Positions 4,201-60,190 of a DNA stretch of 64,000 bases are shown in pieces. The stretch is from assembly GCA_008632985.1 (NCBI GenBank), contig QPGO01000010.1, positions 124,001 through 188,000 of the forward strand, read 5' to 3'. The translations under genes and the position numbers were made by a program. Numbering within the stretch: the stretch's first letter is position 1; each line of letters begins with the position of its first letter. Below the pieces are notes generated by a model. The model saw only the letters and a program-made list of their open reading frames with translations, was not told the DNA's origin and did not search any database. The DNA comes from Psammoneis japonica. Lineage: Eukaryota.

Positions 4201-6700
4201 AAGTTTGATGATGTTTGTTGTGACCATGACATGGAACAGTTCATTGTTGGTGAACACATGGACCAAGAACAAGTTGTGATTGAGGCCAGGGAGATGCAGT
4301 GCATTTGGTCAAGGACAAGGTTGATGGGTGGCCTTGGTCATCTTGAAATTGCAAGGTGTGGACATGGGTGCCATCTGCAATCACAATGGGGGCATGACAA
4401 CCAGCACTGTTGTCAAGAGAATCATGGTGGACAAAGTGAGAGGAGGTGCCAGAGTCAACAAACCAGCTGCAAATGTTGGAGAGGTCAGTGTCACATGGCA
4501 ACTGCTGGGGTTGGTGTGCAGATTGGGGTCATTGGCCATTCAGGCAACTTCTTGACCAGGGGAGTTGATGACTGGGTTGGAAAAGAGAACAGCAAGGGGA
4601 TGAAGTTCTCTTGAGGAAGTCAACACTGACCCCTGAGACAACTGACAAGTTGTCACAATCTGAAGTGGTTGGCAACAGTTCCTCCAAAGGTGTGGTTGTG
4701 CATGCATCATGCAAATCCAATGGTGGAGTTGGTGTCAACTTTTTGGGAAGAGCAAGGATTTTGCTTGGAGGACCACAAGAGGTGAGAGGGCACTGTGGCA
4801 AGTGTGGTCTTGTGGTGACAAAGAGAAGACAGAGCAGTGGATGAGTCCATGCTGGAGTCACAAGAACAGAGAATCAAAAGTGGCAGACCAGTCAAGGCCA
4901 AGTTGCAGGGCAAGTCATCGCTGAATGAGTCAGAACCAGAATCCATTCAGTGCACATGTGGACAGAGTGGTGGTGAGGATCCACAAGTTGAGACAGACAG
5001 GCAACAATCTTCCTCTGCATCAGTGCAGGTGGCACAAAAAATGATTTGGTCATCATGTGGTTGGGCCGTGTTGTGGCAAGTCCAAGTGGCTGCATTTTGT
5101 GCTGAGTGGCAGCAGGAGCAGTTTGTGTTGGAGTGGACTTGAGCCCAAGGCAACAAGAACAGAGGTGTCCTTTCTTCTTGCAATGGCAGCAAGTGACTTC
5201 ACTCAAGTCATGGGCAGGCTTGGCAGTGGATTGGATTTGGGGCTGGACTTGGGTGTTCCATTTTTCAATTCATGAAGATGGGAACAAAACAGTTGGTGGC
5301 ATTGTGGTTCCTCTTGCCACAGCAGCTGCAAATTTCAGAAGTGATGGTGTTGTGTGTTTGTTGTTGTTGCCATTGTTTGTTGCCTGGAGGGTTCCTTGCC
5401 ATTTCAATGTGGTTGTTGTTCATGCACAAGCCGGTGCCACCAGACAAATGGTTGCAGTGTTGGGCAACATGATGTTGCTCGTCAATGTTGTAGAATGTTT
5501 GCCACATGTCCTTGAAGAGGGGAGCAATGGCAGAAGGCAGGCAAGTGGCAGCTCAAAATTCAGATTTGAGTTGCTTGGCAGCAGCATCACATCACAGATG
5601 ACCACCCGTTTGGCTGAGAAAGTGGGTGCTTTCCTTGGCATTGGTTGTGAGAGGCAGGCCCACATTTTTTTGCAGTTCCAAAACTTGTGCTTGCATTGCT
5701 TGATGAAGTTGTCAGAAGATTTGTTGGAGTTGCGGAAGTCCTGGAGGTGGTCACAAGTGCAGCAGTTGTGTTCCTGGGAGAGAGAAGCACGGTGCTGCTG
5801 CAGCTCTTTGAGTGCAAGGTTGCCAGATTTTGGGCCAAGATTGGAGATGTCCAACTTGCAAGCACCATCCGTGCATGTCCACAGCAAAGCAAGAAGAGCC
5901 TTGTTAGTTTCTGCCAGAAGGGAGCAGAGAGGGTCAGAGGGGAAGCCTTCAAGACAGTTGTCGAGCTCAGGAAAAGAGGAAAAAGAGTTTGTGCAGCTCA
6001 TTCAGGAAGGTGTTGAAGCTCTGATGGCGGGTGCATGGGTTCTGATGGTGTTTCAGAACTCCAAGCTTTGGCCATGTGGAATGCAGGCTTCATGAGAGAA
6101 TTTGCCAAAGATTCTGAGGTGCACTCTGTTGCGCTGGCAGTGCAATGAAGAGGCTCAGAAAGGATGGCATCATTGTCAGAGGAAGAAGCATCACAAAAAG
6201 TTTTGTTGGCAGACAATTGAAGTGGGAGTTCCAGGGGGAGTGCCTCAGCCTGTTGCATCATGTTCTGGAAACAGTCAAGGGCAAGGAGTGCACTGGCTTG
6301 ACAAGCTAGATGGCAATGGAGAAGGGACTCAAAGGACAACTTGGCAGCATTGATCATGCAGTCAAGGTCATCCTTGCCTTTGAAAAATGGAGCAAGTGTC
6401 TGTTGAACATTGGAGAGCACATCGGTGGTGACAATGCAAACTTGTGAATTGAGTGCACTGTTGACTGTGATGTCAGCAATGGCAGGGGTTGACGTCTTCA
6501 GAGGAAGTGGCTGTGTGGTTGGTGGCAAAGATGTTTTCCTGGTCCATGCACTGTGGGGTTGCAAGAGCTTTGTCAAGAGCTCTGTCCATCTCATGGTGTG
6601 CAGAGTGCACGTGCCATGAGGTTCTCTGGACATGTTGCTGGAGTCCCATTGGCGGCATTGACATTAGAAAGAGCTGGTGTGGCAGCTTCACAAACAGTCA
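1300..6700 (-). mobile_element. Degenerate Ty1/Copia-type LTR retrotransposon (gag-PR-IN-RT order); ends approximate
   Basis: On the minus strand: two gag zinc knuckles (CSCCGKRNHNATNC near 5310; VTCCHCKKKGHLCSCC near 5180), aspartic protease WFVDSGTSSH near 4450, integrase-like segment ending in HFCTFGCP near 3170, and RT-like GVHGLKD (cf. LYGLK) near 2020. Many stops and frameshifts. No LTR pair recognised. Confidence 0.7.
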
Positions 6701-8217
6701 AGAGAGGTGGGAATTCTTCAGGAGATCCAAGTGGAGCTGTCCCATTGGCCTTGGATCCATGGGCAGCAGGAGGAGAATGAGCAGGAGAGGTCAGGGGAGA
6801 GCAAGGTGCCCCCCTTTTGGCTGAAGCACTCTCATTGTCAGAAGCAACAGTGTTGACAGCAACACAAATGGATTGAGATGTCAAATGATCACGGGCGGGG
6901 TGGGTGTCCAGATGAATTGCATGTCCTCTTGGGCTTGCTCTTGAAGCGACAATCAACATCTTGACACTGAAATGGTTTCCAACAAGACATGCCATGGCAA
7001 TGACAACAGGTTCATGGGGCTTTGCATTCCTGATTGGGCATCATCTTTTTGTGCTTCTTTGGGTTGAGATTGGGGCAACAATTGTCAGGTCATTCACCTG
7101 AAGTGTGAGCAGAGTTGGCATGGTTGGCTGGTGCAGAAGGTTTCTGGGTGCAATTGTGCAGAGTTTCCACATCTGTGTCAAGAAGAATGTCCAAAGATTT
7201 GTTGACATCCTGCAAGTGGTTGCAGATTGCACAATCACAATCAAGATGCTTGGGGTCAGAAAAGTCAAAATCTCTTTGGTCAGCTTCATCCAACAAGTGG
7301 CCAAGATGAGCACTTGAGTGCTGCAAGACATGAAGGTTGGAGTTGAGTTTGGATGTCTCCATCTGGAGACTGGCAACTTGGTGCTGAGCTTGAGCAACAC
7401 ACAGTTTGAGAGCAAAACGCACATTGTCCTTGAATTGTTGGCAACAGAGTTCCTCAGGAGACAGCAGAGCAGGGGCTGGGGCATGCTGAGTGGCCGCAAT
7501 TGAGCTGCGGATGGCACACAGGCTTGGCGTGCCAAAGACCATGGACAGAGGAGCAAATGTCATGCTCAAAATCAGTGTCATCCTTGAAGGCATCAAAAGC
7601 ACAACAACAAGCACATTGCAAGCAATGAGCAGAGACCTTGTTGTGTCCAGGAGCAGGCTGGGATGGCTTGGCAGATGGCTTGGAAAGCAGTGCAGACGTG
7701 TGCTTGATGCATCGGATCGGGGTGCAGTGTGGTGCTCCCTGGGTCACGCATCAGCTGCATCAACAAGAACTTGTGGAGTGCAACACAAGTTGTGATGCTG
7801 GGCCTTGGGGACATTGTCAACAGTGCCTCCATGTGGACCACAAAAGACGCAATTTGGGTGTGCATGTGACAACACACCTTGCACAAGAAGAAGCAGCGTG
7901 AGATGCATGATGAGCATTTGACGCAAAAGAAGCACTCTCCTCAGACCAAACCAGAAGCATTGCAGCCATGACAGAAATTGAGAAAGAACTGGGCCTCGCC
8001 TGAAAGTGACTTGGGGTGATCAAGTCCGTGCACGAACAGGAGAGAGTGAGCTAAAAAGAGTGACAGCTTGCACCACCAAAGCATGATCCAGACATTGTGA
8101 CAGACTCTGCGCTAGTCTCAGAATCGAAGCCAAGATGGAAATCGAAGGATGATTCCAACATGCCAACTAAACGCTGCGGAATTGCGGATGATTTCCATCA
8201 CAAACTGACCAGAAGAC

Positions 8218-9966
8218 ATGGTCTTCAGTCATGACGTTCAAATTTCAAAAGGGAATTTGGAATCCCTGACATCAAGAAGCAACAAAAAAGGCCACCCAAC
8301 CGACCACCAATCTGAGCCTGTGACCCAAACGCAACGCAAAGATGATGATTCTCTCTTCCACATCTGCGAAATCAGAAAGACGCACAGAAAAAATGAAGAT
8401 CAAAGAGTTGCTCAAAAAACCATGAGAGTCCGAAGACCAGCAGCACGTGACAGGATGAAAGAGGTGGTGAGATGTTGGTTTCTTGTCTCGCTGCCCCTCT
8501 TGGGTGTCATGTGCGCCGTCGCGTGGTTGAGCTTTCAGCAGAATGGACCGATCGGGCCTGCGTCAATGAGCTACACTGGAACTAATGAATGCGAAAACAC
8601 TTGCGACTGGAGTAAATCCAATGTCCCAGAACTTCACCGAAAGCTCTTGCCGGCCCAGCCATTCAGTGTGCCACCAACCATTTTGCCAGTGCTGTCCATG
8701 CTCCGTGGCATTAGTCCCAAAAACAGACACAACCATCGTGCGCTGATGGCCATGCTGCTCTTTTCTGTTGGCATCCCAATGCATTTCACCGCACACTTCC
8801 AGCTTCTCGAACCCCAAAATGTGTCGACATGGTGTGGAGCATGGGGCTCAATGATTTTTGTCACTCAAGTGAGCATGCATCATCTGATCTTTGTTCGCAG
8901 CCTTCCTCACTCGGAAAATTCCAATGAGTCGCTCCTCATCTTGCCATTTGGCCTTGGTTTTGCCATTCACTTGTTGGGACACTTGCATTTCGGCGGCGGG
9001 GCCTTTGTGTTTGTGTGGACCCAATCCGTGGCGTTGCACATTATCTTGATGTACCCTTGGCTTCGCCTGGTGGACCGTTGGCTTGAGAAGCCACACTCAA
9101 GAGGCACGCTAATTAATGCAGTTTTGGGGTTCGCTTGGGATGCATTTTACCTTCCATTTTGCAGCAGACGCGAGTCTTTCTTTCTGCCAGGAGGCTTCCA
9201 AGTGCCACTCCATGCAATTGGTGATTGCTTTCACTCCGCAGCTTGGATCATGAGCTGTGCTCCGCTTGTGAATGACATTCTTACAAAAATTTCACACAAA
9301 CATGAGCACTGCACAGAGCAGAAGAAGAAGCAATTGCAGCAGTTGTTGGACTCACAGTTTGGGGAAATTTTGAACAGAACTAGTGTAAATGCACCCTCCA
9401 GCCATTTGGATGGATTCTTTCAAACCATGTGGGTGTCGCCACCAGTGGTTGTTCCCCGTGTAAATCTGGGAACACCTCCCACAGTGCAGGGGTGGTTCTC
9501 TCAGGTGCATGTGACAGAAGCCATCAGCGAGATCTATCTTCATGAGATGCTCCGGCCATGTGATCAAGAAATTTCAGTGGAAATCTTTTTGGCCGACTGG
9601 TCCACCTCCAGATGCAGCACGCAACTTTCTGCCTTCGCCCCTCACAAAACTCTGGGACACTGCTCTTCCCCTGCTGGGACTTTGAAGAAACAGCAAGAAG
9701 TCTTGAAAGCCAAGAGTGACCGGAAAGCATTGGTCATGCACTCTGCCGGTGTTCCACTCGATCGCACTGAATCATGGAGACATTGCCATGCGTGCCATTT
9801 ACCTTCCATGACCTTCGTCCCAGCCAACTCTCACTTTGCCTCCAAAGTGTTGTTGCAGATCCAGCAACGCGCCATGCGAGTGATTTTCGCTAAATGTGGG
9901 TGCAATCGGAATGACAAGCGCCTCATTCTGTACGGCCCTCAATCTCTCAGTGGGGGCGGATTTTGA
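8218..9966 (+). pseudogene. Multi-pass membrane protein of unknown function, mutated copy; lost stop codons make it read through into TE sequence
   Basis: Several hydrophobic helices. Aligns with 15231-16352 with many Y->H/C changes. TAG TAG of copy 2 is CAG CAG here (9337-9342). Confidence 0.65.
9400..9575 (-). mobile_element. RT fragment resembling DIRS/Ngaro-type retrotransposons
   Basis: HLMKIDLADGFCH (K-x-D-L-x-D-G-F-Y motif), followed in another frame by FPDLHGEQPLVATP. Confidence 0.55.
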
Positions 9967-12400
9967 TCCTTGGACGTTGAACAGGGCATGATTGCGCAAC
10001 TGCAACAGTTCCTTCGGCACTCTTGTGGGTTCAACACATGCTGTCAGAAGATCAACCACATGCCGCAGCTCACATTGCCATTGCTTGGCATCAGCTGCAG
10101 CTGGGTGTGGGAATCAGCTTCCTAAAAGATGTCAGCACCAGACATCCACACAGTGAGTCCCACTGGCTTGCATCTGTCCACTTGTTCCTGCATCGTGTGG
10201 GTGGATGCATTGCTGTGTCCCAGGACGGGGTGTCACCTCTGCAATGTGACAATGATCAGCTCCCAATGGACATTGCCTTGGAGTTGTTGGAATTTTTGTC
10301 CCAAGAAATTTGGTGGATCAACCATTGTTGATTGCACCTTCAAGTGCTGCTCACGGTCTCAGACATTGCCTTGGCGGATGGCTGCAACCTGGATGAGTCC
10401 AAAGTCTGTGGTGACGACCCCACTTTCTCCTTGGCAGCATCAGCACCTTGTTTGACAATGTTGAACAGACCAAACCTTGTCTCAAGGCATGGGGTCCCTG
10501 AGTGTGCCTGTGTGAAATGTTGTGTGATGATGGATCCACCAGACTGCAAGCTCTTTTGGGAGATTGGCCAGTGCCTCCTTCCAACAAGATGCAGATTCAA
10601 GCCTCTGCCTGTTGGTCTCCAGAAGAATCACATTTTTGTGTGAGATCTCCATCTGGTTTTAATGTGTTTCTGGCCAAAGACACAGTCGCAACATCATCAC
10701 ATCAAATTGAAACAGTTCCTTCTCCAGCTGACTCATCTTTCCCAGCAGAAATCAACTCACTCAATGAAGGACGGTGGCAATGCATCCCTCACAGATCGCA
10801 GCTGACAGTTGACACACATCCTCTGCCACCCAAGCTCTTCAAAGACCGGCTGCAAGGCCTGCCTTCTTGGGAGTCAGCCCTCTTCTCAGAGATGGAATTC
10901 CACATGTCCCTCTGCAAATTAGCGGATTGCTTTGTTTCAAATTGCCTGATGTCAGGAAGTGACGGGTCTGTGATCCTCCAGAATGACGACCTTTGGCAGA
11001 CTGTGCAGGACTGGCATTTGGCAGAACACCTTCCTCTTGCCAAGCTGAAGCATGTGGCTTTCTCTCCTTGACACGATTTGTTTTCTGCCTGCAGGAGTTT
11101 TGCAAATTGTCCTCATGCAAGGGAGCTGACAACTGGTGCAACAACAAGGCTCTCATTCGAGTTCTGTCCCGTCTCACAGACAGCCGTCCCTCCATTGATC
11201 CCTCCCCTTGTGTCCATCCCGAACTTGATTTTCACCTTTGGAAGCATGTTGCCAATGTCTTGTCATCAGATTGGGGCATTGTGAACAAAATTTGTCAGAC
11301 CTTCACCACTGTCAAAGCCGTTCTTAATCAGTCTTCCCCCAGTCAGGTTCCCACACTTGCTTGAGTGGGTAAAAGGACATCAAGATTGACATCATCCGGT
11401 GGAAACTCCATCTCACAATGTGCAAATCAACATGCGGACTGACAAGCTGGCAGGCTGCTTTCATGGTCAACGTGAGTTTGACATGACAACGGTGTCCCCC
11501 CACTGCCAGTCTTGCCTCCACCTTCAAGATGGGCCCATTGGGGAAAGAAATGAATGGAACGAATCTGTCACTGACAAGATGGATTGGAAGGTGCATGCAA
11601 TGCTGGTTCATTGATGCTCCACATGTGTCCACTGTCAAATTGATCCATGAACTGCCACCTGCAGCCAAACAAGATTGCTCATCGATGCGATCCAGTCAGA
11701 CCGCATCATTGCCTGTCTTGCAAACATTCCATGGAAGATTGCAATCACATCCTGCAGTGTCCAGCCAATGAACCTTCTTGGCAATGCAAACTCTTGCAGG
11801 GTCTGCAAAAACACTGCAATGATGTTGATGCAATGCCTCCTCTTTGGGATCTGTTCTTGTCCTCTGTTGAAGCATGGTTTGAAGGTGAGATGACATGTGA
11901 TGATGACATTCACCCCTTGTTGCAACCTCCATGGAGAGCCCAGTCAGACATTGGATGGTGACAACTGTTCAATGGCCGTTGTTCCACCCTCTAGAACACT
12001 TTTCAAGAAATGCACCTCTGCAACATGGGACTGTTGGAAAAGTGTAGAAAGGAGAGCCGCCCACCTCCAGTCTGGGCTGTGCAGACAGGAACCTGCATTT
12101 GGAAATCTTGGTGGGAGTTGTGGGAGGAGCACAATCAAGAGGTCCACAGTCATGACGTGGACACTGGGAAGTCATCTCTGTGACAACAAGTGGAGGCCAA
12201 GCTCACGGCAATGTGCAACAAAAGACAGGATCATTTGGCTAAAGATGGGGACATGCTGATGGATTCAGTTGAAGAGCACCAATCTCACTCCACTTTGCAG
12301 ATGATTGGCTGGATCGCAATGGCAAAACCACAACTGAAAGACAGCCTCAAGAAAGCAAAGTGCTCCATGCGGCACTTGCTCTGCAGCCAGTTGTTTTGGC
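9600..12400 (+). mobile_element. 5'-truncated, degenerate non-LTR (LINE-like) retrotransposon with RT C-terminus, RNase H and CCHC finger
   Basis: HKTLG...G (RT thumb), LYGPQSLSGGGF..EQG, RNase H motifs SDGS, SSCQAEACG (cf. SSYRAE), CNN, EWVKGHQD (near 11364) and QINMRTDKLA, then CLSCKHSMEDCNHILQC zinc finger. Confidence 0.75.
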
Positions 12401-12539
12401 GGGTTGGTGTCACCTTCAGATGATGCCCATTCTGGCTGATTTGCACAAGCTTCTGCCGCACCGCAAGGTGCACTTGACGTGTGGGTCAGCTGGTGCCGGC
12501 CTGGCTGGCAAAGGAGTGATGGCGCTCAAAAGATTGACC

Positions 12540-12897
12540 TGGTTTTTTTAATCTTCATGAGACACACCTTGAAAGTTTGCCCAAGTGGCATTGATTTGAC
12601 TGAAGCAGTGGGCTGTGTGGCTGAATTTTCACCCCATAAAATGTTCAGTCCATCCACTGTGGGCCTTGGTTGGTGACCGTGCTGTGACACAACACCAATG
12701 GAGCCAAGTCACAGTCCTGGTGTGTCTTGTGCAAGCACTTTTTTTGCATGGTGGCACAGCTGTCCAGAACCCTTTTTCAACCACATCTGCCATGTCTTTG
12801 TGCAAGAACTTGATGCACTTGCAAGTGGATTCATGTGTTCCCCTGGTGACACTGGCATCCAGCTCAGCACGTGTCCACAGTGCATCAGTGATGGTGT
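12540..12897 (-). mobile_element. DIRS-like RT N-terminal fragment, cut at the duplication junction
   Basis: LWTRAELDASVTRGTHEST..KFLHKDMADVVEKGFW resembles the region upstream of DIRS-type RTs (W....RG.H.S / FL..EM......GFW). Confidence 0.5.
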
Positions 12898-15230
12898 GCA
12901 AAGCAAGAAGAGCCTTGTTAGTTTCTGCCAGAAGGGAGCAGAGAGGGTCAGAGGGGAAGCCTTCAAGACAGTTGTCGAGCTCAGGAAAAGAGGAAAAAGA
13001 GTTTGTGCAGCTCATTCAGGAAGGTGTTGAAGCTCTGATGGCGGGTGCATGGGTTCTGATGGTGTTTCAGAACTCCAAGCTTTGGCCATGTGGAGTGCAG
13101 GCTTCATGAGAGAATTTGCCAAAGATTCTGAGGTGCACTCTGTTGTGCTGGCAGTGCAATGAAGAGGCTCAGAAAGGATGGCATCATTGTCAGAGGAAGA
13201 AGCATCACAAAAAGTTTTGTTGGCGGACAATTGAAGTGGGAGTTCCAGGGGGAGTGCCTCAGCCTGTTGCATCATGTTCTGGAAACAGTCAAGGGCAAGG
13301 AGTGCACTGGCTTGACAAGCTAGATGGCAATGGAGAAGGGACTCAAAGGACAACTTGGCAGCATTGATCATGCAGTCAAGGTCATCCTTGCCTTTGAAAA
13401 ATGGAGCAAGTGTCTGTTGAACATTGGAGAGCGCATCGGTGGCGACAATGCAAACTTGTGAATTGAGTGCACTGTTGACTGTGATGTCAGCAATGGCAGG
13501 GGTTGACATCTTCAGAGGAAGTGGCTGTGTGGTTGGTGGCAAAGATGTTTTCCTGGTCCATGCACTGTGGGGTTGCAAGAGCTTTGTCAAGAGCTCTGTC
13601 CATCTCATGGTGTGCAGAGTGCGCGTGCCATGAGGTTCTCTGGACATGTTGCTGGAGTCCCATTGGCGGCATTGACATTAGAAAGAGCTGGTGTGGCAGC
13701 TTCACAAACAGTCAAGAGAGGTGGGAATTCTTCAGGAGATCCAAGTGGAGCTGTCCCATTGGCCTTGGATCCATGGGCAGCAGGAGGAGAATGAGCAGGA
13801 GAGGTCAGGGGAGAGCAAGGTGCCCCCCTTTGGCTGAAGCACTCTCATTGTCAGAAGCAACAGTGTTGACAGCAACACAAATGGATTGAGATGTCAAATG
13901 ATCATGGGCGGGGTGGGTGTCCAGATGAATTGCATGTCCTCTTGGGCTTGCTCTTGAAGCGACAATCAACATCTTGACACTGAAATGGTTTCCAACAAGA
14001 CATGCCATGGCAATGACAACAGGTTCATGGGGCTTTGCATTCCTGATTGGGCATCATCTTTTTGTGCTTCTTTGGGTTGAGATTGGGGCAACAATTGTCA
14101 GGTCATTCACCTGAAGTGTGAGCAGAGTTGGCATGGTTGGCTGGTGCAGAAGGTTTCTGGGTGCAATTGTGCAGAGTGTCCACATCTGTGTCAAGAAGAA
14201 TGTCCAAAGATTTGTTGACATCCTGCAAGTGGTTGCAGATTGCACAATCACAATCAAGATGCTTGGGGTCAGAAAAGTCAAAATCTCTTTGGTCAGCTTC
14301 ATCCAACAAGTGGCCAAGATGAGCACTTGAGTGCTGCAAGACACGAAGGTTGGAGTTGAGTTTGGATGTCTCCATCTGGAGACTGGCAACTTGGTGCTGA
14401 GCTTGAGCAACACACAGTTTGAGAGCAAAACGCACATTGTCCTTGAATTGTTGGCAACAGAGTTCCTCAGGAGACAGCAGAGCAGGGGCTGGGGCATGCT
14501 GAGTGGCCGCAACTAAGCTGCGGATGGCACACAGGCTTGGCGTGCCAAAGACCATGGACAGAGGAGCAAATGCCGTGCTCAAAATCAATGTCATCCTTGA
14601 AGGCATCAAAAGCACAACAACAAGCACATTGCAAGCAATGAGCAGAGACCTTGTTGTGTCCAGGAGCAGGCTGGGATGGCTTGGCAGATGGCTTGGAAAG
14701 CAGTGCAGACGTGTGCTTGATGCATCGGATCGGGGTGCAGTGTGGTGCTCCCTGGGTCACGCATCAGCTGCATCAACAAGAACTTGTGGAGTGCAACACA
14801 AGTTGTGATGCTGGGCCTTGGGGACATTGTCAACAGTGCCTCCGTGTGGACCACAAAAGACGCAATTTGGGTGTGCATGTGACAACACACCTTGCGCAAG
14901 AAGAAGCAGCGTGAGATGCATGATGAGCATTTGACGCAAAAGAAGCACTCTCCTCAGACCAAACCAGAAGCATTGCAGCCATGACAGAAATTGAGAAAGA
15001 ACTGGGCCTCGCCTGAAAGTGACTTGGGGTGATCAAGTCCGTGCACGAACAGGAGCGAGTGAGCCAAAAAGAGTGACAGCTTGCACCACCAAAGCATGTT
15101 CCAGACATTGTGATAGACTCTGCGCTAGTCTCAGAATCGAAGCCAAGATGGAAATCGAAGGATGATTCCGACATGTTAACTAAACGCTGCGGAATTGCGG
15201 ATGATTTCCATCACAAACTGACCAGAAGAC

Positions 15231-16352
15231 ATGGTCTTCAGTCATGACGTTCAAATTTCAAAAGGGAATTTGGAATCCCTAACATCAAGAAGCAATAAAA
15301 AAGGCCACCCAACCGACCACCAATCTGAGCCTGTGACCCAAACGCAACGCGAAGATGATGATTCTCTCTTCCACATCTGCGAAATCAGAAAGACGCACAG
15401 AAAAAATGAAGATCAAAGAGTTACTCAAAAAACCATGAGAGTCCGAAGACCAGTAGTACGTGACAGGATGAAAGAGGTGGTGAGATGTTGGTTTCTTGTC
15501 TCGCTACCCCTCTTGGGTGTCACACACGCCGTCGCGTGGTTGAGCTTTCAGCAGAATGGACCGATCGGGCCTACGTCAATGAGCTACACTGGAACTAATG
15601 AATGCGAAAACACTTACGACTGGAGTAAATCCAATGTCCCAGAACTTTACCGAAAGCTCTTGCCGGCCCAGCCATTCAGTGTGCCACCAACCATTTTGCC
15701 AGTGCTGTCCACACTCCGTGGCATTAGTCCCGAAAACAGATACAACCATCGTGCGCTGATGGCCATGCTGCTCTTTTCTGTTGGCGTCCCAATGCATTTC
15801 ACCGCACACTTCCAGCTTCTCGAACCCCAAAATGTGTCGACATGGTATGGAGCATGGGGCTTAATGATTTTTGTCACTCAAGTGAGCATGTATTATCTGA
15901 TCTTTGTTCGCAGCCTTCCTCACTCGGAAAATTCCAATGAGTCGCTCCTCATCTTGCCATTTGGCCTTGGTTTTGCCATTTACTTGTTGGGACACTTGCA
16001 TTTCGGCGGCGGGGCCTTTGTGTTTGTGTGGACCCAATCCGTGGCGTTGCACATTATCTTGATGTACCCTTGGCTTCGCCTGGTGGACCGTTGGCTTGAG
16101 AAGCCATGCTCAAGAGGCATGCTAATTAATGCAGTTTTGGGGTTCGCTTGGGATGCATTTTACCTTCCATTTTGCTGTAGACGCGAGTCTTTCTTTCTAC
16201 CAGGAGGCTTCCAAGTGCCACTCCATGCAATTGGTGATTGCTTTCACTCCGCAGCTTGGATCATGAGCTGTGCTCCGCTTGTGAATGACATTCTTACAAA
16301 AATTTCACACAAACATGAGCACTGCACAGAGGAGAAGAAGAAGCAATTATAG
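15231..16352 (+). pseudogene. Multi-pass membrane protein of unknown function, less mutated copy (373 aa ORF; true start may be a later ATG)
   Basis: Hydrophobic helices, retains several Tyr codons and the stop TAG at 16350-16352. Carries its own TA->CA/TG changes. Confidence 0.6.
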
Positions 16353-16612
16353 TAGTTGTTAGACTCACAGTTTAGGGAAATTTTGAACAGAACTAGCACA
16401 AATGCACCCTCCAGCCATTTGGATGGATTCTTTCAAACCATGTGGGTGTCGCCACCAGTGGTTGTTCCCCGTGTAAATCTGGGAACACCTCCCACAGTGC
16501 AGGGGTGGTTCTCTCAGGTGTATGTGACAGAAGCCATCAGCGAGATCTATCTTCATGAGATGCTCCGGCCACACAATCAAGAAATTTCAGTGGAAATCTT
16601 TTTGGCCGACCG

Positions 16613-19414
16613 GTCTGCCTCCAGATGCAGCACGCAACTTTCTGCCTTCGCCCCTCACAAAACTCTGGGACACTGCTCTTCCCCTGCTGGGACTTTGAAG
16701 AAACAGCAAGAAGTCTTGAAAGCCAAGAGTGACCGGAAAGCATTGGTCATGCACTCTACCGGCATTCCACTCGATCGCACTGAATCATGGAGACATTGCC
16801 ATGCGTGCTATTTACCTTCCATGACCTTCATCCCAGCTAACTCTCACTTTGCCTCCAAAGTGTTGTTGCAGATCCAGCAACGCGCCATGCGAGTGATTTT
16901 CGCTAAATGTGGATGCAATCGGAATGACAAGCGCCTCATTCTGTACGGCTTTCAATCTCTCAGTGGGGGCGGATTTTGATCCTTGGACGTTGAACAGGGC
17001 ATGATTGCGCAACTGCAACAGTTCCTTCGGCACTCTCGTGGGCTCAACACATGCTGTCAGAAGATCAACCACATGCCGCAGTTCACATTGCCATTGCTTG
17101 GCATCAGCTGCAGCTGGGTGTGGGAATCAGCTTCCTAAAAGATGTCAGCACCAGACATCCACACAGTGAGTCCCACTGGCTTGCATCTGTCCACTTGTTC
17201 CTGCATCGTGTGGGTGGATGCATTGCTGTGTCCCAGGACGGGCTGTCACCTCTGCAACGTGACAATGATCAGTTCCCAATGGACATTGCCTTGGAGTTGT
17301 TGGAATTTTTGTCCCAAGAAATTTGGTGGATCAACCATTGTTGATTGCACCTTCAAGTGCTGCTCACGGTCTCAGACATTGCCTTGGCGGACGGCTGCAA
17401 CCTGGATGAGTCCAAAGTCTGTGGTGACGACCCCACTTTCTCCTTGGCAGCATCAGCACCTTGTTTGACAATGTTGAACAGACCAAACCTTGTCTCAAGG
17501 CATGGAGTCCCTGAGTGTGCCTGTGTGAAATGTTGTGTGATGATGGATCCACCAGACTGCAAGCTCTTTTGGGAGATTGGCCAGTGCCTCCTTCCAACAA
17601 GATGCAGATTCAAGCCTCTGCCTGTTGGTCTCCAGAAGAATCACATTTGTGTGTGAGATCTCCATCTGGTTTTAATGTGTTTCTGGCCAAAGACACAGTC
17701 GCAACATCATCACATCAAATTGAAACAGTTCCTTCTTCAGCTGACTCATCTTTCCCGGCAGAAATCAACTCACTCAATGAAGGACGGTGGCAATGCATCC
17801 CTCACAGATCGCAGCTGACAGTTGACACACATCCTCTGCCACCCAAGCTCTTCAAAGACCGGCTGCAAGGCCTGCCTTCTTGGGAGTCAGCCCTCTTCTC
17901 AGAGATGGAATTCCACATGTCCCTCTGCAAATTAGCGGATTGCTTTGTTTCAAATTGCCTGATGTCAGGAAGTGACGGGTCTGTGATCCTCCAGAATGAT
18001 GACCTTTGGCAGACTGTGCAGGACTGGCATTTGGCAGAACACCTTCCTCTTGCCAAGCTGAAGCATGTGGCTTTCTCTCCTTGACACGATTTGTTTTCTG
18101 CCTGCAGGAGTTTTGCAAATTGTCCTCATGCAAGGGAGCTGACAACTGGTGCAACAACAAGGCTCTCATTCGAGTTCTGTCCCATCTCACAGACAGCCGT
18201 CCCTCCATTGATCCCTCCCCTTGTGTCCATGCCGAACTTGATTTTCACCTTTGGAAGCATGTTGCCAATGTCTTGTCATCAGATTGGGGCATTGTGAACA
18301 AAATTTGTCAGACCTTCACCACTGTCAAAGCTGTTCTTAATCAGTCTTCCCCCAGTCAGGTTCCCACACTTGCTTGAGTGGGTAAAAGGACATCAAGATT
18401 GACATCATCTGGTGGAAACTCCATCTCACAATGTGCAAATCAACATGCGGACTGACAAGCTGGCAGGCTGCTTTCATGGTCAATGTGAGTTTGACATGAC
18501 AACGGTGTCCCCCCACTGCCAGTCTTGCCTCCACCTTCAAGATGGGCCCATTGGGGAAAGAAATGAATGGAATGAATCTGTCACTGACAAGATGGATTGG
18601 AAGGTGCATGCAATGCTGGTTCGTTGATGCTCCACATGTGTCCACTGTCAAATTGATCCATGAACTGCCACCTGCAGCCAAACAAGATTGCTCATCGATG
18701 CGATCCAGTCAGACCGCATCATTGCCTGTCTTGCAAACATTCCATGGAAGATTGCAATCACATCCTGCGGTGTCCAGCCAATGAACCTTCTTGGCAATGC
18801 AAATTCTTGCAGGGTCTGCAAAAACACTGCAATGATGTTGATGCAATGCCTCCTCTTTGGGATCTGTTCTTGTCCTCTGTTGAAGCATGGTTTTGAAGGT
18901 GAGATGACATGTGATGATGACATTCACCCCTTGTTGCAACCTCCATGGAGAGCCCAGTCAGACATTGGATGGTGACAACTGTTCAATGGCCGTTGTTCCA
19001 CCCTCTAGAACACTTTTCAAGAAATGCACCTCTGCAACATGGGACTGTTGGAAAAGTGTAGAAAGGAGAGCCGCCCACCTCCAGTCTGGGCTGTGCAGAC
19101 AGGAACCTGCATTTGGAAATCTTGGTGGGAGTTGTGGGAGGAGCACAATCAAGAGGTCCACAGTCATGACGTGGACACTGGGAAGTCATCTCTGTGACAA
19201 CAAGTGGAGGCCAAGCTCGCGGCAATGTGCAACAAAAGACAGGATCATTTGGCTAAAGATGGGGACATGCTGATGGATTCAGTTGAAGAGCACCAATCTC
19301 ACTCCACTTTGCAGATGATTGGCTGGATCGCAATGGCAAAACCACAACTGAAAGACAGCCTCAAGAAAGCAAAGTGCTCCATGCGGCACTTGCTCTGCAG
19401 CCAGTTGTTTTGGC
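16613..19414 (+). mobile_element. Second copy of the degenerate LINE-like element
   Basis: Same motifs as 9600-12400 at offset 7013-7014. Confidence 0.75.
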
Positions 19415-19554
19415 GGGTTGGTGTCACCTTCGGATGACGCCCATTCTGGCTGATTTGCACAAGCTTCTGCCACACCGCAAGGTGCACTTGACGTGTGGGT
19501 CAGCTGGTGCTGGCCTGGCTGGCAAAGGAGTGATGGCGCTCAAAAGATTGACCT

Positions 19555-20100
19555 GGTTTTTTTAATCTTCATGAGACACACCTTGAAAGTTTGCCCAAGT
19601 GGCATTGATTTGACTGAAGCAGTGGGCTGTGTGGCTGAATTTTCACCCCATAAAATGTTCAGTCCATCCACTGTGGGCCTTGGTTGGTGACCGTGCTGTG
19701 ACACAACACCAATGGAGCCAAGTCACAGTCCTGGTGTGTCTTGTGCAAGCACTTTTTTTGCACGGTGGCACAGCTGTCCAGAACCCTTTTTCAACCACAT
19801 CTGCCATGTCTTTGTGCAAGAACTTGATGCACTTGCAAGTGGATTCATGTGTTCCCCTGGTGACACTGGCATCCAGCTCAGCACATGTCCACAGTGCATC
19901 AGTGATGGTGTGATGGGAGCACGCACCTCGGTGCTTGCAGCTGCTCAACAACTGGTGTGCCAGATGTTTCTGCATGTGAGACAACCACCTCCAATCTCAT
20001 TCTCTGCTGCTGTGATGTTCGAACAAGTGGCTCAGTCCTCCATCACACAATGATTCAGTGTCAATTGCTGGTGCATGCTCCTCACCCAATTCATCACAGC
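19555..20100 (-). mobile_element. DIRS-like RT upstream region, longer remnant
   Basis: KHLAHQLLSSCKHRGA...LWTCAELDASVTRGTHEST...FLHKDMADVVEKGFW. Confidence 0.5.
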
Positions 20101-50705: not shown

Positions 50706-53066
50706 ATGAAATGTTCACTATCGCTTTGCTCTATCTTCTATGTGGGTCTATCCTCCGGAGAGTATCTTCTGCCGGTTCCTAATGCCACGAGCGAGACTAT
50801 ACGACTAAGAAATCGTTCCCTGACTGTCGAGGAAACCGCGAAGCATGGCGATTCAGATGGATTGGTTTCAAACAATATTTTTGCACGCAACGAGAAAGCT
50901 TCTTTTGTTGAGGTCAATATGGATGGGGATGTAATAAACGGAAACGATGCCGTATCTGACTTGATCGACGAGGAGAAGGACACTACCAAACAGATGAGAT
51001 GGTGGCAAGCAGCGTACGTAGGCCAAATGAGAGGCAGCATTAAATCAGAACCGGAGCCAATATCATCAGAAGGTGAGAATGCTAAAGTAGGACTCTTTCA
51101 GTCATGATAAAGCTTACAATGCTGATTTCATTTTTTCTCCAACTACAAAATTGAAGGTCAGAAAAACGTCGCACAAGATACTGGCCCGCCCTCGCAGAAC
51201 CAGGCTGATTTCCGTAAGATTGACTTCTTTCTTGCTTTCATGTTTCAGATTTTGGATATCTTTGTTTCTAATTGATTTTTTTACTATTCTCAAATGTTCG
51301 TCCAGCGTCGAAACATGACATCGATGTTCAGGCTGATGATCGTAAGATTGACTACTGTTTTGCCAGCATGTTTCAGATTTCAGATATCCTTGTTTCTAAT
51401 TCACTCTTTTACGGTGCTAAAATGTTTGTTCAGCGACGCAATATAACATCGATATTCAGTACACTGGAGATCCAATAGTCCGTTCCTTCATCGACGATGC
51501 TGCGAGACGTTGGGAGGAGGTCATTACGGGAGATCTCCCACCTTTCAATCTTGGAAACCAAATCCCTTTTCAATGTACAGAACCGCCAGGAGAGGTGGAT
51601 GATATGTTAGTCTGTGCAAGGTCTGCCTTCATTGACGGTCCGGGTAACGTATTGGGTTTTGGCGGGCCAGGTGTTATTCGTCCACGAAACACGGGGCTTG
51701 TTGGGGCGGGATTGCCTGTTACTGGTCAAATAACAATTGATGAGGACGATATTCAATCCATGATAGACCGGCAAATCCTATTTGATGTTGCTCTACACGA
51801 AATTGGCCATACTCTTGGAATTGGTGAGTGAACAGAAAAGATACAGTGCAATTAGCTCCAGAAATCGCTTTGGCTACATTGTCGCCTGCAATTTGCATTA
51901 ACATTTGCGTCGTCAACGATGTATGCATTGATGTTGTAGGTACGTTGTGGGCTGCCTTTGATTTAAGGGAAACAAACAGAATGGGGCCCTATCGACCCGG
52001 CACAGCTGCTTGTCGTGAATATGAATTACTCACAGGGTGCGAGGGGTGCCCACCAGTTCAAGAAGGAGGCGGACACTGGGAGCAAGCCAACTTGTCCACT
52101 GAGTTAATGACGCAAGCGCTTGGTCCTGGGAATATTATCCCCCTCACGGCGATTACAATCGGCACATTAGAAGATATGACGTACGAAGTAGATTACAGCA
52201 CTGCAGAACCCATAGGTCCTTTTCAATGTGGACCACCGCCCGCGCCAACGTCACCTCCAACGCCTTCTCCAACTTCAAGTCCTACGACTTCGACGACTCC
52301 AGCTCCCACTGTAGCAACCACACCCGCTCCAACGACAGCAACGACTCCAGCTCCGACGGTAGCAACCACACCCGCTCCTACAACGGCGACAACTCCAGCT
52401 CCTACGGTAGCAACTACACCCGCCCCTACGATGGTGACGACTCCAGCTCCTTCGAGCAGTTTAACCCTAATGCCTACACGATCTCCAACGGATGAGACTG
52501 ATCCTCCCACGACGCCAGCTCCTTCGAATAATCCAACACAAATCCCTTCATCTTCCCCAACGGTAGAGTCTGAGCCTCCCACTCCACGACCCACTCCAAA
52601 TCCAACACGGAGAACCACGTCACCCCAGTCGGAGGACACGTCTAACAGGCAGGGATCATCTGACCCATCTGAAATGGGTGTTGAACTGTTGGATGAAGAT
52701 GGAGATTCAAAGCAGCGAAAGCGAAAACGGACCCCTAAACAACGAAAACGCAAACGGAACCGCAAGCGAAGAGCCCCGAAGTGGCGAAACCGCAAACGGA
52801 GAGCCCCGCCACCCCAGCCGCAGGACCCGCCTAGCAAGCGAGGACCATCTAAACGGCGAAACCGCACACTTAGCCAGAAAGGGTTAGTTGAAGCCATCGT
52901 CGCTGGAAAATTGGCGCTGGAAGAGGCTCGAGTGGCTTTTTTAGAACATACAAACGACGGAAATGCAACAGACGGCGTGTACATTGGCCATCTCATCATT
53001 TGTGTTTTTTACGAAGAGGAGGGAGCTTTACACACTGTGATCGTAACTGCCGACGAACTACAATAG
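50706..53066 (+). CDS. Leishmanolysin-like (M8/zincin) secreted metalloprotease with a Thr/Pro-rich stalk, multi-exon
   Basis: DGPGNVLG, HEIGHTLG zinc motif, GHW, ELMT, ITIGTLED..YEVDY, TPAPT repeats. Introns include 51214-51305, 51342-51433 and about 51824-51939. Confidence 0.8.
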
Positions 53067-55084: not shown

Positions 55085-55588
55085 TCATTGACAACATGGG
55101 CAAGAGGGCTGACGAAGACCTCCATTCGCAAACGTCATGTTGGCTAAAATGTCGAGTTGCTCCTCTTGAGTGCTCTTGTTTTCGACATTATTACTGCTTT
55201 GAAACTGTCGTCTCATCAATCCTTTTGGCGAATCAAAATCATGGTTATTTTTATGCTCAGTCAAGACGTTGTCTTTGCCTGTTCCTGTTCCCTTCAAGAA
55301 AGTCTCGTTGCGGCTAGGCGACGCATGAGAATGCCTTGGTTCCCATGGAAATGGTGAAAGCGTCATTAAATCCACTTTAACTTTGGTCACATCGCATTGT
55401 GCGTTAATGTCTCTGGCCTTAATCGTTTCACTTCTTGCGCAATCCTCCTCGTTCACCTTGGGTGGAGGAGGTGACTCTTCGTTGTCTCTAAAGTTTTGCG
55501 TTGCAGCCGCGACTGCGTGCGAATAAAAGACAATCGAGGCAATAAAAATAACCACACTTCCAAGAAATGAGCCTTCCATCATTATCAA
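55085..55588 (-). CDS. Hypothetical protein fragment with an N-terminal hydrophobic segment
   Basis: 167-codon ORF with a signal/TM-like N-terminus. No firm motif. Confidence 0.3.
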   Translation of the reverse strand: MIMMEGSFLGSVVIFIASIVFYSHAVAAATQNFRDNEESPPPPKVNEEDCARSETIKARDINAQCDVTKVKVDLMTLSPFPWEPRHSHASPSRNETFLKGTGTGKDNVLTEHKNNHDFDSPKGLMRRQFQSSNNVENKSTQEEQLDILANMTFANGGLRQPSCPCCQ

Positions 55589-55789
55589 AAGAGCAATGAG
55601 CTACAACAAAATGTGATTGCTGTTTAGCCGGTGATCATAATATTGCGCTGCACTTTTTGATCTGTGCGAATGTTTTCCGGAGCGACCCACTACGGTAAGG
55701 TTTATACGGTATCTTGAATGCGTGGATGCATGCGCGTTATTTCACCTCTCTCAATCGTCCGACTGTGGGGTAGAGAGGCTAAACAAGAA

Positions 55790-58700
55790 CCCTGCAGCGA
55801 GAGGCAATGACATTGAACATGTCACAAATCAACCGAACAGCAACAGTGGAATCCTTTGACCGCCATTGACACAAGCAACAACTGCAACATCTCAACAACA
55901 CTGCTGCAAACATGATCAACTTCCTTTCCTTGGGGAGAGGAGGGGGTGAGGCCACACGCTGGCAGAGAAAGGGCGGGCTTGTCCAATCGAAACAACATCA
56001 GTGTCAGCCACATCATCAACACTGCCATCAATGACAATCCAGCAGCAACATCACATGGAAGGATGAAGAGCTGAGCTGGGCTGTGAATGAGGAGGAGGGA
56101 AAAAAGGGAGAAGAGAAAGCCTTTTTCTGAAAATGTGTGAGTTGACAACCCCAAGCACTGCCAGCAGAGAAAAAGCAAAAGAGCTGTGCAGCTTCATTGT
56201 GGAACCTTGAAAAGGTGAGGGGACAATCAGCAAGTGCTCCACAGAGCCTTGCACGTGTTTTGTGCCAGAGCCATCTCGTGAACTGGGCACATGTTTTTTG
56301 AGCTCAGGCAGAGGGTCTGTGACCAAGCAGCACGAGGTGTCTGCAAAGAAATTGTTGCATGCAAAAGCAGGTGGAACAGTGGAAATTGGACCCTGTTGTC
56401 CAAGAATTCTTTCCATCAGATGGTGAAGGCAAGACCTTCAGTTGGTTGTTGTTTTGTCAGCTTTGTTTCACAAGCACAGTTTTTTTGCTCATGTCAAATC
56501 ATTTTGTGCAGCAGCAGAGAAAAGCAAAAGGGCTGTGCAGCTTCATTGTGGAACCTTGCAAAGGTGAGGGAGAACAATCAGCAAGTGCTCCACAGAGCCT
56601 TGCGTGTGTTTTTTGCCACAGAGCGCCATCTCTTGTGAACTGGGCACATGTTTTTTGGAGCTCAGGCAGAGGGTCTGTGACCAAGCAGCATGAGGTGCCT
56701 GCAAAGAAAATTGTTGCATGCAAAAGCAGGTGGAACAGTGGAAATTTGACGCTGTCATCCAAGAATTCTTTCCATCAGATGACAAAGGCAAGACCTTCAG
56801 TTGTTTGTTGTTTTGTCAGCTTTGTTTCATCAGCACAATTTTTGCTCACGTCCCGTCATTTTGTGCAGCAGCACAGGCCCTGAGAAGTCCAACTTCTGCT
56901 GAAAAGGAGACCATGACAACCACCTTGACCACAAATTCAGGTGCAACATTGTTTTGTTTGGTGTGTTTGTTCCATCATTTGCAGTTGTTTGACGAGCATT
57001 TTTTCCTGGAATGATGTCATCGCGATGCAAATTGCTCACAATTTGACCCCTCTTCCATTTGTTCTTGCAGCAGGCAGCTCCAACCATGCCCACCACCACT
57101 GGGACAATGATGGCCACAATGTGAGGAGGTGTGTAAGTGTTCCATTTGTAATTTTTTGCGACTTTTGCATTTTTGACCATGGCACGGCAGCTTGACACAG
57201 GAACACAGCACTTTCCACTGTCACACTGGAGTTGGATTGTTTTGGCAGATTGTGACCTTGACTTTCATTTGGATCTAACTTGAACAGCACCTGTGTCATT
57301 CTCAACATCTTCCCTGGCTGTTCTGGGGCCGACTCTTTGTGTGGTGGGAAGCTCGGTGACTGCCATGCTCAGTCTTAGATGGAACAGGACTGTCAATGGG
57401 CAGGGCAGATGCAAGAATCACAAGAGGGATTTGTCTGGTCTTTCAGATGGAAATGACACTGTTCTCAACACGATGAGAACTCTCTGCTGGCTGCCGGTGC
57501 AGGAGGTGCTTGATCTTGAAAAAAGATGGAAACCTTTCGCTTCTCAGGACTGCGAGAATCAAGTGGCAAAAAGAAAATGGCGTGGGTGAAAATGTGGAGA
57601 GCTCCAGCTTCTACATTTTGAACACAAAGCCTCACAGTGAGACAACATTGTTGACACCTGATTGTCTTTGAATTCTAAACCTGACAACTCGGCTGCAGAT
57701 TCACAAGGAATTGGCTGGCGCACTGGCAAATGGTTGGCTTCATCATTGCTGGTTTTGGTTGTCTCCATTCTGTCTTTTTCTGTTCTGGGTCTTGTCGACT
57801 GCAACTGCATCTTCATTCTCTGGGAAAAGCCTTGAACATTCCCCAATGAAATCTGTGCCCATCTTCTCTTTGTGCCTGTTGTAGAGATCTCTTGTTGCCA
57901 CAACAAACCTGTTGTGAAGTGCATCCACTTGCTGATTGGTCGGATTGTCAATCTGCTGCACTTCAACAGGCGATCAAATTGCAAGGACAAGCTTGTTTCC
58001 ATTGGGAATGAATCCAAATGGGACACCAAATCACCCAGTCCAAAAGACAAAAGACACGTGAGCCCGATGCGAAAACCGCGCAGCCCACGAACGAGGACCA
58101 AGGGTTCAATCACACGTTTGATCGAAGCCAAAAAAGCAGCAAGGGACAAGATCCACTCCTGTCTGCAAAGCAACTTTGCAAAAGCCTCACCATCGCTCCA
58201 GTGCAATTTGTTCACGGTCAATGCCGTAAAACATGCAACATGCCCACAATCCCATCGTGCTGCAGCATCAAGACAGAGTGTGGATGTGGCAGAGCCAACG
58301 TCTTTTTCAATTCGGTCTTGGACACCAGCACAAGTCCCCCCCATCATGTCATGAGTCGTTGCAACATTGGAACTTGAAAAACAATGTCGGCTCCTGAAAA
58401 CAACATGGTCACACCACAATGTTCTTGAAAGTGCCTTCTAGCCAAGAAGACTCCGATGCCAAAAGCGAGCGCGGAAAGCAGCGCAGAAGACAGCTCCTGT
58501 GCTGTTCTCGAAATGGCCGTCAACAACTGTTTCACAATTGTTGCAACGTTCAAGACCCCTGCCATTGTCACAAAACGCATTGAATGCAGACCAGTGTCCA
58601 TGCGGCCCAGGTCGAAGAGGAACGAGGTGCTCTGCAAGCATGCCACCGAGGATCACATGGCAAAACACAAAGCCTCGAATCGCTCCAACCAGGACGAGCA
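55790..58700. other. TpA/CpG-depleted domain D
   Basis: TA nearly absent from about 55790. It returns at about 58730 (aaatatataaaccgcacatagtgttaag). Confidence 0.85.
56163..56873 (+). repeat. Tandem direct repeat, 2 x about 350 bp
   Basis: agcagagaaaa(a)gcaaaag.gctgtgcagcttcattgtggaacc... starts at 56163 and 56513. Confidence 0.9.
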
Positions 58701-58797
58701 TTGACAGAAGGAAGGAGAAGTTGGAAAATATATAAACCGCACATAGTGTTAAGTGTGCCAACACATGTCGGTCGAGTAGGGGCGAATCTTGCGTCAT
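57743..58797 (-). pseudogene. DGAT2: Diacylglycerol/monoacylglycerol acyltransferase type 2 family pseudogene
   Basis: N-terminal TM, then VFQVPMLQRLMT*WGG, DGIVGM, EQIALERW*GFCKVALQTGVDLVPCCFFG (cf. RxGFxxxAxxxGxxLVPxYxFG) and IDNPTNQQVDALH...LYNRHK. Confidence 0.75.
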
Positions 58798-59138
58798 GGC
58801 GGCGGCGATGATGATGTGCTTGATGGGATCAAAATACAGTGCCGGTAAAAAAAGATCTGATCTGTGTGACGTCAGTATGACGTTTGGATTCATTCGCTTC
58901 GCGCGCTTGAGCGCGCGAGCAACCAATCCACAATGGCTGACGCCGAAAAAGATACACAGTGGATACCGCACAAAACACAAAACAAAAATAGGCAGCGAAA
59001 AGCGAATCGCTGTTGTTGTCGACGTCGTCCCTGTTTGTCGTTGATATCATTTGGCTAATCAGTAAGCGGCTCTCTTCAGCTTTCTTGAAACGAATTGAAC
59101 GGACGAGACATTAAATCTACTTTTTCCGCCACTCCAAA

Positions 59139-60190
59139 ATGAAATGTATTCTACAAATCCTATGCGCGCTGCTGTTTGCACCGACACGTGGCTTTGTGGT
59201 TCCAAGTTGTGGCCATAAAGGCTGCCATGCAGCTCTCTGTAAGGGTCATCGTTGCAGTCTTGCGTTTGTCTCGTTATCGAGCAGCAGTGCAGATGATGAA
59301 GACAAGAGCACTGACGCAGAGGGTGCCTTTCTCGCGGAGGAATTCTCCAAGTTTGCAAAGGCTGAAGGCATTCAGCTAAGCGACGACGATATGCTAGATG
59401 ATGACGACGAGGAGGAGGAAGAAGAAGAAGTCAGTCATGATGAGGAGGAGAGTACTGTTGTTGCGTCTTCGGACGACGAGGACTGGGATCCAGAGGACGT
59501 TGGTGAAAATGTTGCTCTCACTGATGATCAGCTCTACAGCGAGGTGAAGGAACGTGTCTTGGATACCGCAGGCGGATTTGCAAAGTTTGTCGGTGGTGTC
59601 GACTCGGATGAAGAACTAGACGAGGATGGTAAGCCCAAGAAAAAAGAGTACAAGCCACCCACGACGGTTCCTGATTCTGGCCTGACGGCAGGAGAAGTTG
59701 TTGAGCTTGTTCTGGATGCCCTCTTGCACAACGACGTTCCGACCAACAACCGTGGCCTCGAGATCCTTTTCGAGTATTCCAGTGCTACGTCACAAATCAA
59801 AAAGGAAATAGGTTTGACTCCTCAAGAGTACGGGGACTACCTCAAGGAAACTGAATACAAGGTTCTTTTTGAACACGGTGAGGTGGTAAGTTTCAACCAA
59901 TGTTTACGTTTCGATTCTCTCTGACAATAACGAAAAGCCGCTCACTCTTATACTTACTTGTTCCTTCTTTGGTACTCTTTATTTATTGCTAGGTTGTTGA
60001 TAAGGGTGACTATGCCTTTGATGGTAAAAAGGCCTTCTTTACTGCGCGGCTTCGCGTGGGACCCGGTCCGAAAGACTTTACTCCGGTCAACTTTATTCTT
60101 TCGACGGCGGGACATGACGAAGACGATTGCTGGTTAGTTGATTCCATGTTGATCCGTCCCCAGTCAATGCGTCGAAGGAGGAGACGGTAA
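59139..60190 (+). CDS. Hypothetical protein with signal peptide (possibly plastid-targeted); intron 59886-59992
   Basis: Signal-like N-terminus, acidic tract, PDSGLTAGEVVELVLDALLHND. Exon 2 is in frame and ends DCWLVDSMLIRPQSMRRRRR*. Confidence 0.8.

Follow-up and report, generated by a model that had tools for sequence, protein, structure and literature searches.

In Psammoneis japonica, a full-length but broken gene of the DGAT2 family (57743..58797, minus strand, with no intron seen) lies in an island of altered DNA within the window, the stretch of 64,000 nucleotides analysed here. Our comparisons show that two context-specific transition processes act on host DNA by position. The faster process turns TpA into TpG/CpA (A:T to G:C, on either strand), best at TAY and more weakly at AAT and CAT; the slower turns CpG into TpG/CpA, acts strongly nowhere but in the island's interior, and weakens along the gene. 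Taking these observations together, we think it probable that the gene is a unitary pseudogene caught in a 2.9-kb island under both processes, where silent chromatin would be the common setting and deamination would supply both arms.

The gene was identified with Pfam and by tblastn and alignment to intact homologues. With its stops written as X, the C-terminal half of the relic matches the DAGAT family (PF03982) with 67.2 bits (E 1.5e-18; the curated cut-off is 22 bits), and the locus can be aligned with 28 of 29 intact homologues, those of full length across three frames from about 58790 to 57780. It is colinear with the DGAT2 subfamily P0002-P0028 over about 330 residues, at 40-55% identity by segment, and keeps 92 of the 124 columns conserved at 70% or more in 22 homologues. 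The earlier note had read the minus strand as ERW*GFCKVALQTGVDLVPCCFFGFDQTCD* and had taken the gene for a host DGAT2-type gene; both the reading and the assignment are borne out. The relic shares whole-length colinearity with the members of the family; however, it has no open frame, and their YFPH, RRGF and PCY motifs appear in it as CFPR, W*GF and PCC.

Between the ATG at 58797 and the first stop after the aligned part (57745-57743) we find five stops and two or three frameshifts, where a working DGAT2 has an intact frame. In the alignment the five in-frame TGA codons (57974..58346, minus strand) start at 58346, 58189, 58108, 58033 and 57976, and fall on three Arg columns (CGA to TGA), one Trp column and one invariant Gly column (GGA to TGA). 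A one-base frameshift (58495..58500) precedes the NYxLCYFPHS motif, which reads SCLLRCFPRS in the relic, and a 7-base tandem duplication shifts the frame in the GMFYG motif (58230..58243). The remaining frameshift, of one base, falls where the window has four consecutive A (58461..58464); it could reflect a misassembly or a polymorphism, because the contig from sequencing run X1 has five A at this place and keeps the frame. At its 3' end (57743-57775, minus strand) the relic extends a few codons past the ends of its homologues, through CAG and CAA codons; speculatively, this would fit a former TAG or TAA stop turned into CAG or CAA.

The assembly (91 Mb) was searched with the relic, an intact homologue and DNA queries. 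The relic locus is 40-52% identical to the intact homologue, and the other DGAT2 genes of the same assembly are 26-35% identical to it. Protein and DNA searches of the assembly, which may be incomplete, returned no intact copy of the relic gene, and neither did the contigs of three runs at 80% likeness. No other member of its subfamily turned up in these searches, and the relic is probably a unitary DGAT2 pseudogene. Its present position is the putative native one; the orthologues found in metagenomes (11 loci) share no neighbours with it and have diverged too far to be aligned as DNA.

Along the window, ordinary DNA (TA observed/expected 0.60, CG 0.98) takes turns with blocks in which TA is 0.04, CG 0.16 and CA/TG 1.81; the most depleted triplets are TAT/ATA and TAC/GTA. 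A two-state model on TA places the gene, minus its first 23 codons, in a TpA-lost island at 55781..58728, with TA observed/expected of 0.04-0.05 against 0.60 outside. A CpG-lost core, called in the same manner at 55862..58056, lies within this island and ends on the gene side 672 bases short of the TpA edge. In the part of the gene between the two edges (58057..58728, minus strand) TpA is nearly gone (an inferred 87-100%) and CpG is partly lost (an inferred 15-36%). The 5' tip of the gene (58729..58797, minus strand) is spared, with TA in 5 of its 23 codons versus 2 of 306 in the body (Fisher p 2e-5, for an edge picked after inspection). By direct count there are 3 TA in 57746-58728, where each of 134 overlapping ordinary 983-base windows has at least 23 (median 39), and TA reappears at 58729. 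CG is found 3 times in 57746-58050, and none of 283 ordinary windows of 305 bases has so few. In 58051-58728 there are 33 CG, a number that 25% of 274 ordinary windows equal or fall below.

To classify the changes in the relic by context we aligned it to 22 of the 29 homologues, leaving aside three that are long and four that are partial or distant. The relic is altered at 32 of the 124 conserved columns, for which the simplest paths run through TA at 8, CG at 6, TA and CG together at 1, CG plus a transversion at 1, other transitions at 6, and changes containing a transversion at 10. Every tyrosine codon contains TA. At 13 columns, half or more of the 22 homologues have Tyr; there the relic has Cys at 6, His at 3, Phe at 1 and Tyr at 3; at two of the three His columns some intact homologues also have His. 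A codon model, with the codon usage of this genome taken from 51 open frames and codons below 57800 omitted, was fitted against the 22 intact homologues and gives pTA 0.85, pCG 0.39 and 0.02 for other transitions. From this we infer that about 85% of TpA and 39% of CpG in the relic turned into TG/CA, an estimate drawn from proteins of 40-55% identity, as there is no intact orthologue DNA for the relic. The context model exceeds a context-free model by 2dLL 111.6, in agreement with the earlier claim of context-specific changes at TpA and CpG, and adding pCG to the codon model contributes 2dLL 24.2. When context-free decay was simulated on six held-out homologues, 2dLL was 0.6 or less, and planted values were recovered; the simulations also show that the model underestimates transversions.

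The two kinds of loss are distributed differently along the gene. From the 5' tip through the four quarters of the body, pTA runs 0, 1.0, 0.95, 0.87 and 0.91, and pCG runs 0, 0.15, 0.25, 0.36 and 0.87 (heterogeneity of CG across segments, likelihood-ratio test p 0.012). By permutation, TpA has no slope in the gene body (p 0.44), and the CpG trend in direct counts has p 0.023 over 57746-58728 and p 0.65 within 58051-58728; over 55800-58728 the CpG trend has p 5e-5. TpA loss thus forms a plateau that drops abruptly at 58728, whereas that of CpG may be either a slope or a step near 58050, its gradient being modest. A flat TpA profile combined with a graded CpG profile implies two processes with different edges. 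The earlier note was right that TpA returns at the 5' end and that CpG becomes commoner upstream; the gradient toward the promoter that it described is found for CpG, whose loss rises from about 15% to 87% toward the 3' end, but not for TpA, whose loss stays flat and stops abruptly.

The direction of these changes is fixed by a second pair of DGAT2 loci, one of which is intact. L006 (G000:C374:28674-30408) is a TA-poor paralogue and a copy, 89.7% alike over 1737 bases, of the intact L005 (G000:C300:14971-16700). Of the 79 TA sites in L005, 64 are TG or CA in L006, 9 are kept and 6 are otherwise changed, with no change in the reverse direction; 64 of the 70 changed sites are therefore clean transitions, and they divide between the strands as 27 TG and 37 CA (p 0.26). 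For CG, 17 of 91 sites in L005 became TG/CA, with 13 in reverse, and over the pair as a whole A:T to G:C changes number 110 versus 27 for G:C to A:T. Changes per adenine in L006 are 50/94 at TAY, 17/62 at TAR, 15/82 at AAT, 9/68 at CAT and 2/60 at GAT, and AAA, AAC and AAG adenines are barely changed (4/222). Extra changes are more frequent beside TA sites than elsewhere (10/74 vs 33/700, p 0.005). All 15 tyrosines of L005 are lost in L006 (7 to His, 7 to Cys, 1 to Arg), whose 329 codons contain a single stop and no frameshift. The TA-lost island of L006 (28623-30324, 1.7 kb) approximates the copied stretch; it is flanked by ordinary DNA on both sides and contains no CG-lost run. The pair shows that TpA loss is a mutation of host DNA, largely uncoupled from CpG decay, and that it can occur with no CG-lost repeat block alongside. 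As the relic and L006 are both host DGAT2 genes, the earlier conclusion that TpA loss is not a native trait of transposable elements stands.

In ascomycetes, repeat-induced point mutation (RIP) knocks out genes through dense transitions in a specific context, which can spill over into neighbours; it changes CpA to TpA and mutates both copies of a duplication. The resemblance to the present case lies in the dense, context-specific and gene-inactivating transitions. However, RIP makes TpA, whereas here TpA is destroyed, one twin of two is altered, and the gene in the window is single-copy. We rejected RIP, since CA to TA accounts for only 5 of 262 sites while TA is lost, L005 is untouched, and no second copy of the relic gene was found in the assembly.

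A further internal comparison comes from a 7-kb tandem duplication in the window (5884-19912) whose copies are 98.4% alike. Its 108 differences include 31 of TA versus TG/CA and 37 of CG versus TG/CA (68 of 108 together), and 29 of the 31 TA-type differences have TA kept in one copy. In the part that is spared in one copy, 29 of 94 TA-adenines differ versus 9 of 188 CG-cytosines. The duplication is a young record of the TpA process. At about 15000-16900, TA is kept by the second copy and lost from the first.

These comparisons bear on whether the signature is targeted at all. A genome-wide TA to TG bias filtered by selection in genes would agree with the observation that the islands are mostly gene-free, but ordinary intergenic DNA and silent sites hold TA observed/expected at 0.60, the island edges are sharp, and in an intact control pair of DGAT2 loci (L003/L004) only 2 of 275 TA-adenines differ. 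The control loci are 97.6% identical, lie on different contigs, and are probably uncollapsed alleles. An assembly artefact is opposed by the run X1 contig, which was independently assembled, possibly from the same sample, and agrees with the window except at 3 places in 6 kb. The L005/L006 and L003/L004 comparisons contradict both the untargeted bias and the artefact, and we regard either as very improbable. The two base differences of the X1 contig, at 57134 and 57386, are one TA to CA and one CA/CG; both lie in the island and on the signature (n=2).

To place the island in a wider setting we surveyed 321 kb. Of these, 264 kb belong to the contig of the window, and the other 57 kb surround L005/L006 and were chosen, not random. 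Of the 29 TA-lost islands called, 9 have no CG-lost run, and 36,550 bases are TA-lost only versus 666 that are CG-lost only. In the other 20 islands the TA edge lies outside the CG edge at 28 of 35 edges, with a median overhang of 120 bases; the rates of the two-state model were fixed by hand and the TA contrast is sharper than that of CG, so small overhangs may reflect unequal power.

Pol eta-type polymerases misread at WA, and the TpA arm could in principle be a by-product of the CpG arm, in which T:G mismatches arising from 5-methylcytosine undergo long-patch repair by such a polymerase. TA islands overhang the CG-lost cores that they enclose by about the length of a repair patch, AAT ranks second among the targets in L006, and changes there cluster beside TA sites. 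However, a polymerase of this kind leaves unexplained why AAA, AAC and AAG are barely touched while CAT is changed, why the changed TA sites are so largely clean transitions, and why 9 of 29 islands have no CG-lost run. In addition, the main text of a preprint on Bigelowiella natans describes a TpA signature with almost no G/C to A/T change (Mettrop et al., bioRxiv 10.64898/2026.01.13.699255). We consider error-prone repair an improbable source of the TpA arm.

On the 5' side, the relic gene is separated from its intact neighbour by a head-to-head spacer (58798..59138) of ordinary TA and high CG, which we presume to be a shared promoter region; over 58721-59138, CG is 1.48 and TA 0.56. The neighbour (59139..60190, plus strand) belongs to no Pfam family and has one GT-AG intron at about 59885-59992, as judged from its open frame and a spliced contig of run X2 that covers it from 58972. 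The TpA edge at 58728 is 244 bases from the start of this contig and 411 from the neighbour's ATG, and the earlier statement that the loss halts close to the intact gene at 59139 is upheld. Spliced contigs of run X2 extend over both neighbours on the right but leave the relic uncovered; we do not take the missing cover as a sign of silence. On the other side, a possible gene of 165 residues (55085..55582, minus strand) starts 199 bases from the island's left edge. Its hydrophobic N-terminus may mark a secreted or membrane protein; it has no Pfam match and one short homologue across 16% of its length. Farther left are a light-harvesting gene at 53988, which was identified by Pfam and points to a probable diatom as the host, and a leishmanolysin-like zinc peptidase (51421-53066, plus strand) with weak Pfam matches and a Thr/Pro-rich repeat stalk.

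This arrangement suggests that the island may be transcriptionally silent chromatin lying between active transcription units, and that its edge at 58728 would be determined by the neighbouring gene, which is active and has a transcript extending at least as far as 58972. Over the surveyed islands, 24 edges face the head of an open frame (median distance 446 bases) and 14 face a tail (median 863). Edges lie near open frames in both orientations and promoters are not singled out, so these distances do not point to a barrier specific to promoters.

The earlier note had placed the origin of the mutagenic state in adjacent repeats at 56163-56873. The repeat is real; however, it consists of two tandem copies, local to this place and about 355 bases each (56162..56876; copies 56162-56519 and 56512-56876, 89.7% alike) with no sign of a transposon. 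A Pfam search in six frames found no transposon domain in 55782-57745. The 2-kb stretch beside the gene has two weak DNA matches elsewhere in the assembly (77% over 93 bases and 88% over 39 bases), in a search that skips very common words, and both sit in TA-poor DNA. A transposon origin for 55782-57745 thus finds no support in these searches.

Spread of a mutagenic chromatin state from this repeat is possible, and in its fullest form this account holds that the state killed a working gene and that its front is still advancing to the promoter. It would explain why inferred CpG loss climbs toward the island centre, as in the trend over 55800-58728, and why TA edges run ahead of CG edges, as expected of the faster process in a growing domain. 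L006 shows that 81% TA loss can be reached with one stop and no frameshift, and the two on-signature differences in the X1 contig hint at recent activity. Yet TA loss has no slope in the gene body, a static methylation gradient would look alike, the repeat shows no sign of being a transposon, and the island of L006 sits in ordinary DNA with no CG-lost core, all of which speak against spread from the repeat as the earlier note had it. The same note held that the gene was destroyed by the signature. This is supported for three of the five stops, which fit CGA to TGA, and not for the 7-base duplication, the one-base shift and the other two stops, which are off-signature; the duplication, the shift and the GGA to TGA stop could predate the island. 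On balance we find the spreading-front account doubtful, and silencing or mutation may either have killed the relic gene or have come after its death.

We favour position in silent chromatin as the common cause, with a separate chemistry for each arm. The CpG arm would be deamination of 5-methylcytosine. CG to TG/CA changes are in excess in the relic, as the pCG term shows, and make up 37 of the 108 differences in the 7-kb duplication. DNMT5 is described as methylating CG on transposon islands of diatoms, with genes not the primary targets (PMC9998398). Decay of methylated repeats, as it would be expected in sharply bounded islands of an otherwise unmethylated genome, resembles the inner core and would account for it; but CpG decay is unable to remove TpA, and TA loss here is both wider and faster than CG loss. 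The genome contains 27 matches to the C5 DNA methylase family (e.g. G000:C297, C301, C10, C28), several of them clustered and several broken by stops, which make methylation possible without demonstrating it; at two candidate DNMT5 loci the methylase domain alone was found.

The TpA arm would come from a TadA/ADAT-like enzyme that is recruited to silent DNA and deaminates adenine there. This mechanism is favoured because the changes are nearly pure transitions, prefer a 5' T and are independent of CG loss. We rank it as the most likely, though short of an even chance, with error-prone repair and a modified T or A far behind and on a par with one another, and any other mechanism below these. 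A modified base in silent DNA, either an oxidised thymine or a methylated adenine that deaminates, could miscode at TpA while unmodified adenine goes unedited. The strand symmetry of the L006 changes cannot separate a lesion in A from one in T, and marking followed by decay would parallel the CpG arm; the rate needed, however, is several-fold above that of 5-methylcytosine decay (64/79 vs 17/91), and we think a modified base unlikely. As to the enzyme of the favoured deaminase mechanism, TadA/ADAT-like genes are present (L052 and L055, with scores below the TadA cut-off), but to our knowledge such genes are universal, so their presence is permissive and proves nothing. The available part of a base-editor paper (PMC13101598) contains no motif data. 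At another locus (L054:313-1785, minus strand, G000:C79), an open frame of 491 residues contains, in this order, a zinc deaminase and a 2OG-Fe(II) oxygenase domain (DIOX_N); judged by these domains it is possibly a fused nucleobase-modifying enzyme, and a role in purine or pyrimidine catabolism is more likely.

The closest known system is that of B. natans, in which integrated NCLDV and virophage DNA undergoes TpA to TpG/CpA hypermutation, at a rate raised about 1000-fold in mutation-accumulation lines; an ADAT2-like deaminase has been proposed and is unproven, and low-TpA coding sequences with host-like domains are mentioned (Mettrop et al., bioRxiv 10.64898/2026.01.13.699255). As far as its main text describes it, the likeness extends to A:T to G:C change at TpA on both strands, bounded regions, the sufficiency of a single copy, and long-term TpA-poor clusters. 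There are also differences from that description. Mutation in B. natans is exclusively at TpA, with G/C to A/T rare, whereas AAT and CAT are affected here too, albeit as accumulated differences and not fresh mutations. The targets there are viral inserts and foreign-looking DNA, as opposed to two host DGAT2 genes near saturation, and the present organism belongs to a different supergroup and has a nested core of CpG decay. The words 'diatom', 'CpG' and 'pseudogene' do not occur in the main text of the preprint, and a literature search that excluded most subscription papers found nothing on TpA hypermutation in diatoms.

TpA hypermutation has so far been measured in one alga, on viral inserts. 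Our data show that a TA-specific mutation process known from the viral DNA of another alga extends to ordinary host genes. What is new is its action on host genes in a distant lineage and near saturation, with a direction fixed by an intact twin, a preference for TAY over TAR and then AAT and CAT, and edges apart from those of CpG decay. As a tentative generalization, for which we would claim less confidence than for the local account, enzymatic editing of adenine at TAY, and weakly at HAT, may operate across silent chromatin with no need of cytosine methylation or duplication, be kept a few hundred bases off active units, destroy silenced host genes, and be common to stramenopiles and rhizarians. 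The observed action on host genes recasts the process, otherwise read as a defence against foreign DNA, as one that would mutate silent DNA according to position. In a gene caught in such an island every Tyr codon would turn into Cys or His, making gene loss irreversible even without a stop, and this offers a possible route from epigenetic silencing to irreversible gene loss. The change of Tyr to Cys or His is a simple mark by which such pseudogenes may be recognized in algal annotations, and the exact edges of the islands can be used for testing chromatin marks and candidate enzymes.
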